Below, piece by piece: positions 2,338 through 18,344 of a stretch of 18,344 nt of DNA. Origin of the DNA: an uncultured Nitrososphaerota archaeon (GTDB lineage: Archaea; Asgardarchaeota; Njordarchaeia; Njordarchaeales; Panguiarchaeaceae); assembly GCA_964636085.1 (NCBI GenBank), contig CAZWPQ010000016.1, positions 26,625 through 44,968 on the forward strand, read 5' to 3'. Position 1 is the first letter of the stretch; the number at the start of each line of letters is the position of its first letter. A program made the translations under genes and the position numbers. The notes under the pieces are model-generated. The model ran no database searches. It saw nothing but the letters and a program-made list of their open reading frames with translations, and was not told where the DNA came from.

Positions 2338-3651
2338 CTATCCAATATGTTTCGACAATAGCATCCCCAATCTTCTAATACCCTCTTCAATGTCCGCTGG
2401 TTTTAGCAAAGAGTATGAAAGCCTCATCGTGTTTAAATGATATTTAATTTTCTCGATTGACCCAGTATCTGGGTTATAAATCCATCCCAACTGCTCTACA
2501 GGATAAAAAGCGACGCCAGGTACATAATTTACATCATTTTTCAGCGCTACTTCCTCTAAAAATGTGGGGGCATTGAACTCTCCCTCACTTTCATACCATA
2601 CAAAGAACCCTCCCTGCGGTTTCGTGTGGATACCAGGCGGAAAATATTTTTCGATGCTTTCAATCATCGCATTTCTTCTCCTCATATACTCCCCAACAGC
2701 TTCAGGAAGTACGCGGTCTATCCATTTCTCGTAGTACTCTTTCAGCAACACTTGATTGATTACGGGTGTACATAGATCTTGATAGCCCTTCGATTTTATG
2801 AACTCATCAACAATAGTTTTGGGTATTACACCATATCCAACACGAAATACTGCTGCTTCCTTGCTTGATGTACGTAGATAAGCTACATACTCATTTTCTT
2901 TATCCATGGATTTTATCGGAGGGATTTTTTCTCCTCCAAAGTATATATCCCTATACGCAGCATCCTCCACGATCAAAATTTTATATTTGACCGCTATCTC
3001 ATATAATTTCTTTCGTCGAGATAATGGCAATGTTGTTCCCTTAGGATTATCAGAGTCTGCCACAACATAGATGAAATCAGGCGTTTTTCCAAATTTTTCC
3101 ATAGCCTTCTCTATAGCCATATCTACGTATTCAGGAATTATTCCATGCTCATCCGTCGGTACACAGACTATGTTCGCCCTATGCATCCCCAATGGACCAA
3201 GCGCTCCTAGATAAACTGGTGCTGGACAAATAACAACATCCCCGGGATCAATGAGTATATTCGTTAATGTAAATAGGGCCTGTTGACTTCCAGTAAAAAT
3301 GGTTACCGCATTTATCCTCTCATTCTCGTCTTTTGGGAGAGGAACCCCATCTTTTTCGAGCCTATCTGCCAATACTCTTCTTAAGGGATCATATCCAGCT
3401 GTTTTTTCGTAGTTAAATATCTCCAATACCTCCTTCTCCTTTCCATCCTTCACCAACTTGCCAAGCTCTTCGCCAATATCAACAAGTATTCTTGTCAATG
3501 TCTCTAGTGGTAGAACACCAGGTTTGCCTCCAGCAAAGTAGTATCTCACCTTGAACCTTAGAAGTCTTCTAATCTCGCTCTCGGGTATAAGTTTGGTCCA
3601 AGCGGCAAATTTAAAGCCAAATTCATGCACTTCTGTTACGATGCTTGACAT
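2338..3651 (-). CDS. PLP-dependent aminotransferase, fold type I (class I/II; aromatic/2-aminoadipate aminotransferase-like)
   Basis: Motifs SEIRRLL, AGGKPG, TGSQQAL, DNPKG, EDAAY, TSSK (PLP lysine), RVGY, PQGGFFVW, VPGxAFY, MRLSYS. ATG at 3651 is preferred over TTG at 3672 because a TTTTTAAG TATA-like element sits about 30 nt upstream of it. Confidence 0.9.
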   Translation of the reverse strand: MSSIVTEVHEFGFKFAAWTKLIPESEIRRLLRFKVRYYFAGGKPGVLPLETLTRILVDIGEELGKLVKDGKEKEVLEIFNYEKTAGYDPLRRVLADRLEKDGVPLPKDENERINAVTIFTGSQQALFTLTNILIDPGDVVICPAPVYLGALGPLGMHRANIVCVPTDEHGIIPEYVDMAIEKAMEKFGKTPDFIYVVADSDNPKGTTLPLSRRKKLYEIAVKYKILIVEDAAYRDIYFGGEKIPPIKSMDKENEYVAYLRTSSKEAAVFRVGYGVIPKTIVDEFIKSKGYQDLCTPVINQVLLKEYYEKWIDRVLPEAVGEYMRRRNAMIESIEKYFPPGIHTKPQGGFFVWYESEGEFNAPTFLEEVALKNDVNYVPGVAFYPVEQLGWIYNPDTGSIEKIKYHLNTMRLSYSLLKPADIEEGIRRLGMLLSKHIG

Positions 3652-3701
3652 ATTTCCCTTCAATATCCCCAAAAAACTACTTAAAAATGTATCGCTATAT
3701 A

Positions 3702-4508
3702 CTATTTTGTGACACGTGCAATATTAATTCCTTCCAAGTGAGAGAGAAATTCAATAATGCTCGGAAGACTTGGCGCGGAGAGGATACCATGGCAATCAAC
3801 CAAGAGACCGTTTTCGAGACGTATTCTTACAAGAGGGCCAAATATTGATAAGGATCTAGACATTGTGTCGAGTCGAAACATTATCCCATATAAACCATTT
3901 ATGACATCACTCCCCCTAACCTCTATTTCATCCACTCCTACAACCCCCGTAATTTGCGGGTTTAGCATAAAGACGGCACTTGTAACCTTTGTCTTTAGTG
4001 TCTTCATCAATATATTAAATTTATATGGGGCAATAGTATATTCAGAAAAAAGCACTAGATCACCAGATTTTTTTGTTATCTTCCTTAATTTCTCCATTAG
4101 ATCTCGATTTGCAAGTAAGTATCGGTACTGTCGTAGCTTTACTATAACTCCTTCAGGAAACTTTCCACTGGGCCGAATTTCCATACCAGTTACGTAGTAT
4201 ATGTAATCAACAGGCTTGTTAGATATCCTATTAAATAATTTTGTAAAGTTTACGCATTCAAGTTTTTGATTCTTTAATACCCCTCTTAGACTCCTAAAAC
4301 TAGTCTTACAACCGTATAGCTGCCAATTTTCTATGCCTACTTTAAAAAATCTATGGACAAACATCAAAGCTTTCTTTATCCTCTTGTACCTAATTTTTCT
4401 GCGGATAGCCTCGTGGGGGTTTTTGGAGCCTCTTATGTTCAGGATTTCCTCGACAATCGCCAGTGCTTCCTTCTTAGATAAGTCTCTTAGTAATTCTGAG
4501 AGGCCCAC
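3702..4508 (-). CDS. Hypothetical basic protein (268 aa); possible CENP-N/L- or RdgC-like (TBP-like) fold
   Basis: Long ORF filling the gap between two genes, with a GTG start preceded by GTGA. K/R-rich, with a helical N-terminus followed by an alpha/beta pattern. The fold assignment is speculative. Confidence 0.75.
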   Translation of the reverse strand: MGLSELLRDLSKKEALAIVEEILNIRGSKNPHEAIRRKIRYKRIKKALMFVHRFFKVGIENWQLYGCKTSFRSLRGVLKNQKLECVNFTKLFNRISNKPVDYIYYVTGMEIRPSGKFPEGVIVKLRQYRYLLANRDLMEKLRKITKKSGDLVLFSEYTIAPYKFNILMKTLKTKVTSAVFMLNPQITGVVGVDEIEVRGSDVINGLYGIMFRLDTMSRSLSIFGPLVRIRLENGLLVDCHGILSAPSLPSIIEFLSHLEGINIARVTK

Positions 4509-4669: not shown

Positions 4670-5062
4670 GTGATAGACCGCATTTATGTATTTACGGGTG
4701 GTGGATTATTATCTATAGTGCAGATAAAAAACAATGAAGCAAGAGTCCTAACAAATTGGCCCGAAGAGGTCTCCCTTAGTGCAATGAGCGTCGTAGCCTA
4801 TATGTTAAAGGAATATCAAGAAACAAAAAATAGGGTAGTCATACACAAGGATTGGATAGCATATATACCCGAGGAATCAAACTTTATTCCTATGGTGAAG
4901 ATTAGTAATAAGCGTTACCTCCTAGCCACCATAGGGTTCATCAGAAGATTATCACTTAAGCTGAAAGATCTACCTGAGGAATGCAGAACTGTTGCCGAGG
5001 CCATAATAAGTATCTACGAGAAACATTTCAAACAAAAAATCTCTAAGATAATAATGATTTAG
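4670..5062 (+). CDS. Small hypothetical protein, possibly longin-like
   Basis: GTG start 8 nt after a GGTGA RBS; 130 aa. N-terminus MIDRIYVFTGGGLL resembles the longin beta1-G-beta2 start. The stop overlaps the udg stop by 4 nt. Confidence 0.65.
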   Translation: MIDRIYVFTGGGLLSIVQIKNNEARVLTNWPEEVSLSAMSVVAYMLKEYQETKNRVVIHKDWIAYIPEESNFIPMVKISNKRYLLATIGFIRRLSLKLKDLPEECRTVAEAIISIYEKHFKQKISKIIMI

Positions 5063-5685
5063 AAGAAAGAATCCAGCGTGATTTTTTCTTCACCTAAATT
5101 AAGCAGTTGTTTGATTTTTTTGAAATCATCCATTAAAAATTTCTTCCAAGGAGGCCTATATAGGGCGGCAGCAGGGTGTATCGTTACTAGAACTTTAATG
5201 TTTTTACCATGAGCAACTAGGTTAAACACTTTACCCCTGACACTCAAAATGCTCTTTAAACCAAAACCCACCCTTGATAATATGTACCTTGCGGAATGTC
5301 TACCCAAGCATACAATTATGTCAGGCTGTATGATGGAAATCTGGCGATCCAAATAAGGACTACATGTGCTTATTTCATCTGGCTTGGGATCTCTATTATT
5401 GGGTGGTCTACATTTTACAACATTGGTTATATACACATCTTTCCTTTGCATGCAGAGTATGTCCTCTATTAGTGATGTTAGTAGTTTTCCAGCAGCACCA
5501 ACAAAAGGTTTACCCTGTAGATCCTCTTGATAACCAGGAGCCTCGCCAATAAACATGATCTTGGCGTCAGGAGTTCCTTCTCCAGGAACAGCATTTCTTC
5601 TGTTTCTCCAAAGCGGGCATTTCTTGCAATTTAGGATTTCTCTCTCGACTTCTTGTAGGGCGCGGAGTTTGTCATCTATTTCCAT
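5059..5685 (-). CDS. udg: Uracil-DNA glycosylase family 4 ([4Fe-4S])
   Basis: Motifs CKKCPL, GEAPG, PFVGAAG, NVVKCRPPNNRDP, C..YL and HPAAALY. GGTGA RBS upstream; C-terminal KITLDSFF. Confidence 0.96.
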   Translation of the reverse strand: MEIDDKLRALQEVEREILNCKKCPLWRNRRNAVPGEGTPDAKIMFIGEAPGYQEDLQGKPFVGAAGKLLTSLIEDILCMQRKDVYITNVVKCRPPNNRDPKPDEISTCSPYLDRQISIIQPDIIVCLGRHSARYILSRVGFGLKSILSVRGKVFNLVAHGKNIKVLVTIHPAAALYRPPWKKFLMDDFKKIKQLLNLGEEKITLDSFF

Positions 5686-5770: not shown

Positions 5771-6127
5771 ATGCCTAAGAGGAAGCGTGAATTTTGGTAT
5801 ATAAGTGAGATAAGACCCACATCTGGAAGGGTCGACATAGTAGTAACCGTAATTCGGGTACAGTCGCTGAAAAAATTCTTTAAGGGAGATGAGATACATA
5901 GGGTAGCAGAGGTACTTGTTGGGGACCGGACCGGCATAATAGTACTTGTAGTATGGGACGATCTTATTGACAAAATTCGGGAAAGAGAGACATATGTGAT
6001 AAGGAACCTGAGGCCTAAGATATACAAGAATAGGATGAGGGTCGTATGTACCAGGGATAGTACAATTGAGGAGGCCCCATATAGGATCCCAATCAAAGAA
6101 ATAAACGTAGCCCCAAAAATCAGATAG
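5771..6127 (+). CDS. Single-OB-fold single-stranded DNA-binding protein (crenarchaeal SSB/RPA-like)
   Basis: ISEIRP...VDIVVTV...VAEVLVGDRTGxIxLVVWD...IRN...YK...STIEEA aligns by eye with the Sulfolobus-type SSB OB fold (GDETG/LxxW). Confidence 0.82.
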   Translation: MPKRKREFWYISEIRPTSGRVDIVVTVIRVQSLKKFFKGDEIHRVAEVLVGDRTGIIVLVVWDDLIDKIRERETYVIRNLRPKIYKNRMRVVCTRDSTIEEAPYRIPIKEINVAPKIR

Positions 6128-10406: not shown

Positions 10407-10886
10407 CTACTTCTTACCAAAAAGCCTTCTAAAAGCCGACTTTATCTTATCTATTATGCCTAGTTTCTTCTCCTCTGGTTTTTTATGCTCTACTATCAAC
10501 TCCTCCTCTTCAGGACGCCCAGCCTCCTCAACAGCCCTCCTTACCTCCTCGTCCGTTACTTCAGGCATCTCTTCGGGCACTTTAGACTCTATATCTGCCG
10601 CTCCTACTTCCTTCTCCTGCTTGTATACTTCTATCTTAACCGAGGCCCAATCCACATGTATTGTACCATCCACAATATCAATATTAAACATTATGCGGAC
10701 TACATCCGATTTATCAACATTGTTCTCTCTCAATATCTTGAATAGATGCTGATTCATGTGTGCCGCGACCTTGACGGCGTCCTCCGTTTTTACCCCCCTT
10801 TTCCTTGTAGCTGCTATTAACACCCTCCTAAGCTTATCCGCATATCCCGACGCCCTAACCGGGCCCGTGCTGATACTCAACCGCAT
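10407..10886 (-). CDS. ThermoDBP-related (DUF2258) ssDNA-binding protein with acidic linker and C-terminal amphipathic helix
   Basis: STGPVRASGYADKLRRVL...AAHMNQ.LF...VDKSDVVRI...IEVY matches the DUF2258/ThermoDBP-RP N-terminal domain. GGGGGT RBS upstream. Confidence 0.82.
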   Translation of the reverse strand: MRLSISTGPVRASGYADKLRRVLIAATRKRGVKTEDAVKVAAHMNQHLFKILRENNVDKSDVVRIMFNIDIVDGTIHVDWASVKIEVYKQEKEVGAADIESKVPEEMPEVTDEEVRRAVEEAGRPEEEELIVEHKKPEEKKLGIIDKIKSAFRRLFGKK

Positions 10887-14246: not shown

Positions 14247-15332
14247 CTAGGATTTTATTCTAGCAATTATGGCTATTACAACAGCCAAAAATAGGAAACC
14301 TAAGACAAAAAACAACAATTTTGGTTGACTATTAGCCCCACTCTCCCCCTCTATATCCAACATAAACTCATAGGTCGCGTCCTTGTAGTTCTCCTTCTTA
14401 ACAATAATCTTAATGCTATGCTCACCACTATCCCTGGGCTCCCATGTGAACTCATATACACCATTATTATCCGTTCTGCCGGCCCCTACGACTTGATCAT
14501 TTATAAGAACCCTTACCTCCGCCATGGATACAGGACTATTATCGTTGTCCACTACCTTTATTATAATAACGATTGATGACCCCACAATCTGTTTCCCCAC
14601 GGTAGAAACCATTATTGATATCTCCTCCTTTGTCACATTTAGTATATCCTTGCATGAGGATCCGAAGTAATACTCATCGCCCTCGAAAATTATGACAAAA
14701 TCATATGTATTAACCCCCAACTCTCCATATGTACCGTCGACTGTAGATATGTTAAAACAGACAATACCATTGTCATCGGTAGTAGCATTCATACATGGCC
14801 CAAGAGACTCATTAATAAAGCAGAAAGTTAACTCCTTTCCTGGAATTCTATGTCCATCATCATCCTCCAATGCCGCATAAATAGTGATCAAGTCGGAATA
14901 TTCAACACTAGGAATATTTAGCAGTCTTATACGCGATATTTCCTTATATACATAGAAATCTGCCTGCGCTTCTGCATAATCATCCCCATATTGCGCAGAT
15001 GCATTCACTCTGTAGCTTCCCGGAGGATACCGAACATCATCAATCCTGAACTGTGCACGGCCATCATTTCCAGTTCTTGAATAACCTATATACTCCTTAT
15101 CTGTACCTCCAATAATCAGATAGAAACTAACATTAACACCCACGATTGCTGTACCATATGCATCCGTCAATCTTACCTCGAAAATTACTGGATCAGAATA
15201 ATTAGTCTCATATACCTTATCGGTAAACTCCAAGCTAATTCCTTGGCGTGGCTTTGGTATGCTGTAGACATGCGTCCCCATCGTTATATGGGATAGTATA
15301 ACCATAAGCAATACTAGATGTACACTCCTCAT
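14247..15332 (-). CDS. Membrane-anchored surface protein with three Ig-like domains
   Basis: N-terminal signal-like segment, three beta-repeats with TxxDG/TDxxG turns, and a C-terminal TM helix LLFFVLGFLFLAVVIAIIA followed by RIK. Confidence 0.85.
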   Translation of the reverse strand: MRSVHLVLLMVILSHITMGTHVYSIPKPRQGISLEFTDKVYETNYSDPVIFEVRLTDAYGTAIVGVNVSFYLIIGGTDKEYIGYSRTGNDGRAQFRIDDVRYPPGSYRVNASAQYGDDYAEAQADFYVYKEISRIRLLNIPSVEYSDLITIYAALEDDDGHRIPGKELTFCFINESLGPCMNATTDDNGIVCFNISTVDGTYGELGVNTYDFVIIFEGDEYYFGSSCKDILNVTKEEISIMVSTVGKQIVGSSIVIIIKVVDNDNSPVSMAEVRVLINDQVVGAGRTDNNGVYEFTWEPRDSGEHSIKIIVKKENYKDATYEFMLDIEGESGANSQPKLLFFVLGFLFLAVVIAIIARIKS

Positions 15333-15364
15333 AAGTATAACCGTATTAACAAAGAAAATTCTAG

Positions 15365-15405
15365 AAAAAACATAAAATGTTTTTTATTCAGTACTGAATA
15401 AAAAA
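15365..15405. repeat. 26-bp perfect palindrome (15380-15405) overlapped by a second inverted repeat (15365-15385)
   Basis: TTTTTTATTCAGTACTGAATAAAAAA is its own reverse complement. AAAAAACAT-aaa-ATGTTTTTT has 9-bp arms and shares the T6 tract. Confidence 0.9.
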
Positions 15406-15410
15406 TAGCA

Positions 15411-18344
15411 CTACTCCGACTCTTCGAGTGGTTCCATCTCAAATTCTTCTGCCTCACCCTCTATTGCCGATTCAATCCCAGCAATCTCCGCTTTCCTCCT
15501 CTTATTCTTGAAAACCACTAACCCAATTATAGATGCTACGCCTAGTAGAGCAAACATGAATATATATGATGGTGCTCTACCACCAACCACACTTCTTTTT
15601 ATACTATATTTCAGAGGGCTATAGTACTGCTTGGTAATAACGATAGTGATGTTATAGTCTCCAGCCTCGTCTGGAATCCACTCGGCACTATATTTGCCAG
15701 TCGCATCGGTCACGCCTTGAGCCGCTATGTCTCCATTTATCATTATTGTGACATTGGCACCCTCCACATATTTCACAGTTTCATCATTCTCGCCGACTAT
15801 TATTTCGATACTCACCTCATCCCCCGCATATATGGTCTCTGGATATATCCTAAGGTCTAGGAGAACGATCCCTTCTGGGATTATCCTTATTGTTGTTGAT
15901 GCTGTTGTTTTGGAATATTTGCCCTCAGAATCAACAAAGTATGCAACGAGTGTATAATTACCCACAGGCAAGTCTCCTGGAATCGTTATCACTGCTTTCC
16001 CATCCCCAGAAGTAATTACTGGCGACAATTCATATGTCCCTCCAGCATATGTAAGATTGGCATATATAGTTTTACCAGCCAATTTCTCTCCATCATCCGT
16101 TTCTAGATACAGACCTATAGCGATAGCATCAGTATATTCAGTGGTATATTCGTTACGGTCAAATCTTATTATTGTTTCCTCTGAAACAACCCTAAGAGTC
16201 GTAGACTTTGATGATGAGACATAGCCTTCTAGTCCCTCACATACAGCAAAAAGCATGTATTCTCCTGGGATTATTTCCGCGATCCAAGTTATATATCCAT
16301 AACCATCGGCATTTGTTACTGCGCTACCTATCGATACATTATTCCCAGAAATCTCCAACAGGAACGTAACATTTATATTACCTACTGGGCGTCCTTCTTC
16401 GTCTAGTACCCTTATATCTATAGTTATCTCGTCCCCATACTCGACTTCATATTCTGCCTGAGTAAACTGTAGATTTAAATACCCTATGACATATTCAACA
16501 CTAAATCTAACTACCGACTTTGCAACATTACCAGCTAAGTCAACTGCCTTAACTATTATGCTATAATTGCCAATGCTTAAGTTTGTGAATGTGTATGACT
16601 TGTTTAGCCCGACATATATCCAATCCCCATCTATAGTGATATAATGACACAGAACTTCAATATTATCATCACTATCCCAAATCACGGTTACAGTATCATT
16701 ATCGATCACAGTGTCGTTTTCTGGATATGATATATATATAGTTGGCGGCGTCACATCTATATAGATAACGAGGAGTTTAATTGCCTCATTCCCCACCATA
16801 TCTACGGCCTTGACTAGTATTGTATGGTTGCCTTCCGTCAGGCTGAGATTATAGTACGTATTGTTGCCAACATTAATCCATGAGCCATTATAGTTTATCT
16901 CATAATGATCTATCCCAGAGAAATCCTCCTTAACATCCCACACCAAATGTATGTCTGTATGATTTATATAGGATTGATTTTCTGGTGCTATTATGTCCAA
17001 AAGTGGGGCCGTAATATCTACATATACAACTAAGAGAATTTTGGCCATATTTCCGGCCTTATCCAGACCCTTTATATAAACCATATACATCCCATCTTCT
17101 CCACAGCTCATATTGTATGATGTAGAAAGCCCAAGGCTTATCCAAACACCATTAACGAATATCTCGAAATGATCTAAGTTTTCATCACTACCTTCCCATT
17201 CTATAAATACATATCGCTGATTATGCCAACTATTATTTTCCGGGCTCAAAAGATTCAGCGTTGGTGCCATCGTATCTATTACTATCCATACAGAATCCTC
17301 ACCAACATTTCCAGCATAATCATACGCCCTAACACATATCGTGTAGTTACCATCCACCAATCCAGATATCTGATAAGAAGTTAGAGCGCCAACATCAATC
17401 CATGAGCCTCCCCAAGATATTTCGTAGTGGTCTATACCATACGAGTCTGTCCCATTCCACATAACCAATACGGAAGACTCATTTATATAGGAGGCCGTCT
17501 TCGGATCCAATATTTGAACAACAGGGGGTGATAGATCAACCACTATACTAACCAATGCTACTGCACTATTACCCGCTCTATCAACAGCCTTTACATATAT
17601 TGTATGGTTACCCTCCTTCACACCAACAAATACATATGAATTATTTGTGCCTACATCTATATAGCCCTCATTATCTATCCTCACATAATACCTATCCAAA
17701 TAATCATCACTACCACTCCACAGTACACTAATGTTGTTACTATTCAGATAATCCCCATCATTGGGCGATAATATGGTTAGTGAGGGAGGCGTCAGGTCCA
17801 CAACCACGGTAACGTTATCGGAAACACTATCCCCAGATATATCGACAGCAAACACACTAATTTTATGCTGGCCCTCTGAAAGACTAGTAATATTATATGT
17901 GGTAACATCACTAGGAATGCTCTGATTTACAGGAGTATCATCCACATATATCTCGAAATGATCTATATCACCACTAGAATTCCAGACAACACGTACCCAA
18001 GAAACATTGAAGAACAATCCATCAGGAGGAGAGAGAATGCAAACACTCATAGATATTACATATACACTTATATCATCACTACCCCTATTGCCTGCCCCAT
18101 CAAAGGCAACAACACAAACATTATACCACTTACCCCCCTCCAGACCACTAAAATCATGATGATCAGTCAAATTGACACCAGCAACATAAACAGCCTGCAA
18201 ACTACCATTAAGATAAACCTTGACACTACCAATAGACGAACCATCATCACTAGCATTCCAGAAAACAGTAAAGGCGGTACCAACACTAGCACCATCCTTA
18301 GGACTCGAAATAGTGACTGTCGGCGGAGAGGTATCAACAGTGAA
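15411..18344 (-). CDS. Giant Ig/FN3-like repeat cell-surface glycoprotein (5'-truncated by window edge)
   Basis: Frame is open to the window end (FTVDTSPPTVTISSPKDG... upstream of 18200). Seven ~86-95-aa repeats DxxPP..I.SP..W...D..DHYEI...G.HTI.VKAVD.AGN, then three Ig-like domains, a TM helix, KNKRRK and an acidic tail. Many N-x-S/T sequons. Confidence 0.9.
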   Translation of the reverse strand, partial: FTVDTSPPTVTISSPKDGASVGTAFTVFWNASDDGSSIGSVKVYLNGSLQAVYVAGVNLTDHHDFSGLEGGKWYNVCVVAFDGAGNRGSDDISVYVISMSVCILSPPDGLFFNVSWVRVVWNSSGDIDHFEIYVDDTPVNQSIPSDVTTYNITSLSEGQHKISVFAVDISGDSVSDNVTVVVDLTPPSLTILSPNDGDYLNSNNISVLWSGSDDYLDRYYVRIDNEGYIDVGTNNSYVFVGVKEGNHTIYVKAVDRAGNSAVALVSIVVDLSPPVVQILDPKTASYINESSVLVMWNGTDSYGIDHYEISWGGSWIDVGALTSYQISGLVDGNYTICVRAYDYAGNVGEDSVWIVIDTMAPTLNLLSPENNSWHNQRYVFIEWEGSDENLDHFEIFVNGVWISLGLSTSYNMSCGEDGMYMVYIKGLDKAGNMAKILLVVYVDITAPLLDIIAPENQSYINHTDIHLVWDVKEDFSGIDHYEINYNGSWINVGNNTYYNLSLTEGNHTILVKAVDMVGNEAIKLLVIYIDVTPPTIYISYPENDTVIDNDTVTVIWDSDDNIEVLCHYITIDGDWIYVGLNKSYTFTNLSIGNYSIIVKAVDLAGNVAKSVVRFSVEYVIGYLNLQFTQAEYEVEYGDEITIDIRVLDEEGRPVGNINVTFLLEISGNNVSIGSAVTNADGYGYITWIAEIIPGEYMLFAVCEGLEGYVSSSKSTTLRVVSEETIIRFDRNEYTTEYTDAIAIGLYLETDDGEKLAGKTIYANLTYAGGTYELSPVITSGDGKAVITIPGDLPVGNYTLVAYFVDSEGKYSKTTASTTIRIIPEGIVLLDLRIYPETIYAGDEVSIEIIVGENDETVKYVEGANVTIMINGDIAAQGVTDATGKYSAEWIPDEAGDYNITIVITKQYYSPLKYSIKRSVVGGRAPSYIFMFALLGVASIIGLVVFKNKRRKAEIAGIESAIEGEAEEFEMEPLEESE

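Follow-up and report, generated by a model that had tools for sequence, protein, structure and literature searches.

The inner kinetochore proteins CENP-L and CENP-N pair through their C-terminal domains to form a vault over one DNA duplex. Within the CCAN (constitutive centromere-associated network), CENP-L/Iml3 is represented by Pfam PF13092 and by PDB entries 7R5V_L, 7PKN_L and 4IT3, and CENP-N/Chl4 by PF05238 and by 6EQT, 7XHN_N, 6QLD_N and 4JE3_B. RdgC, found in Proteobacteria and phages (PF04381; 2OWL and 2OWY), pairs through its base domains and additionally through its tips, and in Halobacteria and Bacillus a histone-linked RdgC-like protein is encoded together with a histone and a membrane protein, the three genes forming one operon (PMC11390915). 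CENP-LN has been proposed to stem from a duplicated DNA-binding homodimeric singleton (Pesenti et al. 2022, 10.1101/2022.01.06.475204), and a 2025 review describes chromosome segregation in Asgard archaea as essentially unknown (PMC12188315). No report of an Asgard CENP-L/N homolog was found in the literature searched, with most subscription papers outside reach, and CENP, kinetochore and RdgC go unmentioned in the text and supplements examined of a 2024 structure-based Asgard preprint. Here we analyze a gene at 3702..4508 on the minus strand of an 18,344-nucleotide stretch (the window; contig CAZWPQ010000016.1, assembly GCA_964636085.1) from an uncultured archaeon of the Asgard order Njordarchaeales. 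In keeping with this placement, the methionyl-tRNA synthetase encoded in the window shares 69-72% identity with that of Ca. Njordarchaeota GB_136, and NCBI assigns a family member of its clade to Njordarchaeia. Its product is probably a homolog of CENP-L/CENP-N and RdgC that acts as a homodimeric clamp on double-stranded DNA, without sequence specificity, in housekeeping chromatin or DNA maintenance.

The open reading frame (ORF) encodes 268 residues, as the initial annotation had it, and its GTG start matches the start of P0002, a 56%-identical metagenome homolog. The protein is also as basic as that annotation described, with 24 lysines and 21 arginines (45) to 24 acidic residues, and a pI of 10.0; by net charge it ranks in the top ~4% among ORFs of 200-400 aa in the host genome. 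It is encoded by a single-copy gene: it scores 136.7 bits and the runner-up ORF of the genome 12.8 bits, and no second member was found in the host genome, which is 83% complete. Pfam and PDB sequence searches with the 268-residue protein alone gave no match, and a single-sequence search of the Atlas returned nothing useful, the Atlas's own model having a predicted local distance difference test score (pLDDT) of 0.35.

The best matches of two high-confidence models are CENP-L/Iml3, CENP-N/Chl4 and RdgC, above all other solved folds, and so neither outcome that the initial annotation had named as fatal to it, a lack of structural similarity to CENP-N/L, RdgC or TBP-like folds or assignment to an unrelated known family, was obtained. 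In both models a TBP-like LN-homology domain precedes a C-terminal dimerisation domain, which is the domain order of the CENP-L/CENP-N/RdgC superfamily, and modeling reproduces the foreseen architecture of a helical N-terminal part and then repeated beta-sheet/helix units. Residues 1-57 (4338..4508, minus strand) are modeled as a four-helix, SAP/pyrin-like domain at the position of the CENP-N pyrin domain, a region left unaligned by both RdgC and Iml3. The TBP-like beta-sheet/helix unit of residues 58-157 (4038..4337, minus) is the equivalent of the CENP-LN homology domain and the predicted DNA-contacting arm, and residues 158-268 (3705..4037, minus) make up the dimerisation domain, where the family is most strongly conserved. 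As modeled, then, the protein belongs to the CENP-L/CENP-N/RdgC structural superfamily. Because the whole chain matches CENP-L better than CENP-N, we regard it as a relative of the CENP-L/CENP-N pair rather than as a CENP-N. The initial annotation had likened it to CENP-N/Chl4; the fold and a C-terminal motif partly uphold that likeness, but CENP-L fits better and the N-terminal sequence likeness is not significant.

The same comparisons bear on whether the protein instead represents one among several RdgC-like lineages of prokaryotes and is not specially related to CENP-LN, serving recombination or repair (for example by restraining RadA as RdgC restrains RecA) or acting as a nucleoid protein. 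RdgC scores about as high as CENP-N, and the fold is widespread: phage RdgC carries it, as do archaeal clusters of 223, 252 and 782 aa and MJECL33-like, helicase-fused and DUF6119 proteins. RdgC-like proteins whose genes neighbour a histone gene and that carry additional domains at both ends have been published (PMC11390915), and by eye KaiC/RAD55-like ATPase genes follow the family gene in one host family (f10; f-numbers denote host families within the phylum set of 301 genomes described below). However, both models place CENP-L about 2 Z units above RdgC. The N-terminal domain has no aligned counterpart in RdgC, and no link by sequence connects RdgC with the Chl4 motif considered below. We consider this explanation less likely than not, though nearly as probable as the direct orthology discussed below. 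Convergence on a common TBP-like beta-sheet arrangement as the source of the structural match seems to us the least probable account of all.

We next consider pairing, which is predicted. Two copies of the protein scored 0.53, against 0.00 for the best control; of the proteins solved as pairs, 20 of 30 attain this mark, as does 1 of 23 solved as single chains. Contacts agreed between runs to at least 76%, and the partner pLDDT was at least 77. The predicted two-fold interface comprises residues 182-222 (3843..3965, minus), in which strand 192-200 runs antiparallel to its mate, accompanied by helix 202-212, and it holds 6 of the 7 most conserved residues. Across the family G188, G191, G199, R212 and G224 are invariant and V202 and G205 nearly so, all within the C-terminal domain on which conservation is centred. 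The C-terminal interface is the only one among the reported predicted contacts, the status of unnamed residues being uncertain, whereas RdgC closes its ring by a second, tip-to-tip interface.

Although the initial annotation called the protein an orphan, and despite the absence of Pfam and PDB sequence matches, it has about 100 homologs across the Asgard archaea. A search iterated from relatives found full-length homologs in 101 of the 301 genomes of the phylum, and a larger profile found them in about 102 once three spurious matches had been taken out; a negative-control phylum of small genomes gave 1 spurious match in 251. Weak profile matches in G015, G227 and G254 proved to be other proteins. 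Nearly all carriers have one copy per genome. The gene is near-universal in host families f7 (27/29), f22 (20/21), f16 (11/11), f27 (10/11), f20 (6/6), f10 (5/5), f5 (4/4), f18 (4/5), f21 (3/3) and f25 (3/3), and is present in 23 of 24 genomes of the order Hodarchaeales. Profile searches did not find it in f9 (0/76), f14 (0/19), f12, f15, f17 or f23, of which f9 and f12 are probably Lokiarchaeia and f14 Thorarchaeia, and in the host's own order it is patchy (3 of 13 other genomes). By source name the members come from Hodarchaeales, Kariarchaeaceae, Odinarchaeia and Njordarchaeia, and a few matches bear the NCBI labels 'Thorarchaeota' or 'Promethearchaeota'. A profile search across 1.84 billion representatives recovered only 84 proteins, nearly all of them in Asgard clades of the tree; two of the proteins, P0083 and P0084, are distant. 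The check for Asgard restriction thus came out almost entirely in its favor.

In a quick tree every host family forms its own clade, with f16 a partial exception, indicating vertical inheritance. Because the gene is also single copy, we favor a housekeeping function in maintaining chromatin or DNA over one in defence or in a mobile element. A defence or mobile-element protein could be suspected from P0083 (E 2e-6), which precedes a 474-aa ORF resembling a restriction endonuclease by eye and lies near a PDC-S05-like gene and a TrmB/nucleotidyltransferase pair (L129:4968-8132), from the helicase fusions among Atlas matches, and from the patchy presence in Njordarchaeia. However, vertical inheritance largely excludes it; the copy number, the lineage-stable housekeeping neighbours and the lack of any PADLOC match also speak against it, and we consider it improbable. 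The setting of P0083 is defence-island-like, unlike every Asgard locus examined. No metagenome locus was found for P0083, no plasmid relatives were found for the family, and the listing gave no RNA holder.

Sequence comparison ties the family to Chl4 in one region. All four motifs quoted in the initial annotation are present (residues 3-21, 54-65, 112-133 and 195-209). Of the motif order that it drew from them, the W-x-x-Y strand and the C-terminal G-x-D-V-x-x-G motif hold throughout the family, but the P..P..VV....Y segment occurs in the closest relatives only. In two genomes the Pfam CENP-N model matched the family gene at its C-terminal motif, scoring below its cut-off and amid noise matches. 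When the C-terminal half of one of these two members, picked after the Pfam result had been seen, was searched against PDB sequences, yeast Chl4 was the sole match (E 0.019). With the segment given by this match we gathered eight full-length Chl4 proteins, and then compared profiles by hhalign. Residues 174-235 of the 268-residue protein, which enclose the predicted interface, align with Chl4 381-438 (P 1.6e-4 to 2.7e-4), and the same register recurs in 4 of 5 disjoint subfamily profiles. The basal group is best (79%, P 1.6e-5), and the link is weaker in the Njord (P 0.01) and Hodarchaeales (P 0.12) subfamilies. At 46.3, the basal-group score is higher than that of any of 120 column shuffles (at most 25.6) or of the reversed alignment (15.9), and with a full-length Chl4 hidden Markov model (HMM) five family members take the top ranks among 4,183 ORFs. 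As a control, RdgC and Chl4 profiles show no link (P 0.33). The C-terminal motif, singled out by the initial annotation, is therefore the sole region with a measurable sequence link to Chl4, and these comparisons weakly suggest that a Chl4-type dimerisation motif is present at the level of the family.

Several results set limits on these findings. The comparison used a narrow Chl4 profile, and P values of this size would fail significance in a large library search. Whole-family and half-family profiles retrieve no CENP-N, CENP-L or RdgC among PDB sequences; neither the 268-residue protein alone against the Chl4 motif nor the N-terminal profiles against Chl4 reach significance; and Pfam CENP-L gives no match on the family gene in 54 genomes. 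In addition, the dimer prediction may show likeness only, because similar complexes have already been solved. The Pfam CENP-N cut-off (25 bits) was reached by no family gene in the same number of genomes, the best scoring 13.7 bits; among 23 members searched with this model one matched at E 0.055, and the 268-residue protein gave no match. Pfam RdgC matches 2 of 97 members (best E 0.02, below the curated cut-off), and a weak profile link joins RdgC to the basal subfamily, here in the TBP-like unit and not in the C-terminal domain (P 4.5e-4). Judged by Pfam cut-offs, the protein is not CENP-N, CENP-L or RdgC.

The analysis establishes the gene, its family and distribution, its fold and conserved motif, and it predicts the dimer; DNA binding and the cellular role we infer, chiefly from CENP-LN and RdgC. 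Two chains would be joined by strand 192-200, running antiparallel across a two-fold axis with helix 202-212 packed on it. If the CENP-LN vault and the ring of RdgC are a guide, the pair of TBP-like arms would then form an arch whose basic inner face may hold one DNA duplex irrespective of its sequence, and the N-terminal helical domains at the arch tips could add contacts to DNA or protein.

A stronger version of the clamp proposal makes the family the direct, pre-duplication ortholog of CENP-L and CENP-N, a gene of the Asgard ancestor that eukaryotes inherited and duplicated into a heterodimer. The family appears to unite features that are split in eukaryotes, a CENP-N-like N-terminal helical domain and a full CENP-L-like C-terminal domain; it seems to share with Chl4 a dimer motif absent from RdgC; and it is present in nearly all Hodarchaeales. 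With Chl4 as the query, no Atlas cluster outside CENP-N/L scored above 0.77 by features, which is below noise. However, that negative covers only clusters of at least 50 members, and other prokaryotic clusters equal or surpass a CENP-L cluster in their match to the 268-residue model (template-modeling scores of 0.65, 0.55 and 0.53, compared with 0.55). Moreover, the Chl4-like signal peaks in the basal subfamily rather than in Hodarchaeales, and Pfam CENP-L signal is absent. We regard direct orthology as a serious possibility that falls short of an even chance.

In nearly all genomes there is no paralog with which to form a CENP-LN-like heterodimer. One exception is JALUHM01, a genome of the order Hodarchaeales with two tandem family genes behind a Rab-like GTPase gene (L212:70-2570, JALUHM010000160.1; the same genes appear in L207). 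Their products of 311 and 314 aa are 26% identical, and the first is without the conserved two-glycine loop. This pair, seen in a single genome, is possibly an independent homodimer-to-heterodimer duplication. A fuller statement of the orthology proposal, which we offer a little more tentatively, is that CENP-L and CENP-N have in this family their surviving ortholog, one that never underwent the duplication: a homodimeric clamp on Asgard chromatin already equipped with the CENP-N-type N-terminal domain and dimer motif, with the JALUHM01 pair a separate replay of the duplication step. If so, a core inner-kinetochore module would be older than eukaryotes.

Returning to the homodimeric clamp, we can set it beside the described systems. 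CENP-L is an obligate partner of CENP-N inside the CCAN, whereas a genome with this family usually carries a single member, whose product is predicted to pair with itself; identity to CENP-L/Iml3 is 9-15%, with no Pfam signal. Relative to CENP-N/Chl4, the family stays below the Pfam cut-off in all genomes tested, its N-terminal sequence match is not significant, and it is without the long linker of Chl4. CENP-A recognition, a feature of CENP-N, is not known to have an archaeal counterpart. RdgC is without the N-terminal helical domain and the Chl4-like motif. By their published description, the histone-linked proteins resemble the family in joining a prokaryotic RdgC fold to an extra small N-terminal domain but differ in having an extra C-terminal domain (PMC11390915), and no operon of their type with histone and membrane protein was seen at the family loci examined. 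Since this conserved family, single-copy in most genomes, has a predicted fold and self-pairing like those of CENP-L/CENP-N and RdgC, it is a testable candidate for the ancestral single DNA-clamp gene. It offers the singleton hypothesis a small, concrete candidate in the archaeal group nearest to eukaryotes, and makes that hypothesis testable under any of the leading readings.

The neighbours of the family gene are housekeeping genes that vary by lineage and are stable within each. In the window, a co-oriented class I/II aminotransferase gene (2338..3672, minus) lies 29 nt downstream; it is adjacent within the genus only, and we treat it as incidental. The divergent 130-aa gene at 4670..5062 (plus) had been described as longin-like and paired head-to-head with the family gene. 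Its orthologs in two congeneric genomes are 37% and 56% identical, three orthologs gave no Pfam or PDB match, and neither of the two congeneric genomes that carry both genes keeps the pairing. We regard the longin link as unsupported and place this gene outside the system.

Elsewhere, a Zn-ribbon and winged-helix family of 130-140 aa, with a strongly conserved core and usually single copy, occurs in 88 of the 301 genomes (Heimdall-side families, Njord, f6, f13 and f18). Its gene lies upstream of the family gene, directly or close by, in f7, f16, f24, f25 and one Njord genome (examples are L004:620-1024, L099:3941-4351 and L224:1331-1723). It is not an obligate partner: it was not found in family-bearing f5, f10, f20 and f21, and in most Njord genomes, the host's included, it is unlinked. 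The family gene is adjoined by a gene for a Rab-like small GTPase in Hodarchaeales, f5, f19, f21 and f30 (e.g. L118:3388-3939), though not universally; in eukaryotes the pseudo-GTPase CENP-M binds the apex of the CENP-LN dimer. In f5 and f21, a protein with an E2F/DP winged-helix match (PF02319, E 6e-8, above cut-off) is encoded at a distance of one or two genes, adjoining a PDCD5-like gene (L094:1995-2438; also L073, L095, L097 and L101). The gene upstream in f27 encodes Rpb5 with an extra N-terminal restriction-endonuclease-like domain (L093:4984-5571), a layout that recalls the two-domain Rpb5 of eukaryotes. The window also encodes the nucleic-acid proteins TFB (1341-2192), uracil-DNA glycosylase (5059-5685), a single-OB-fold SSB-like protein (5771-6127) and a ThermoDBP-related protein (10407-10886). 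At 14247-18200 the window encodes a pair of long, acidic proteins, secreted or anchored in the membrane and built of beta-rich repeats, which look by eye like ordinary surface proteins of archaea.
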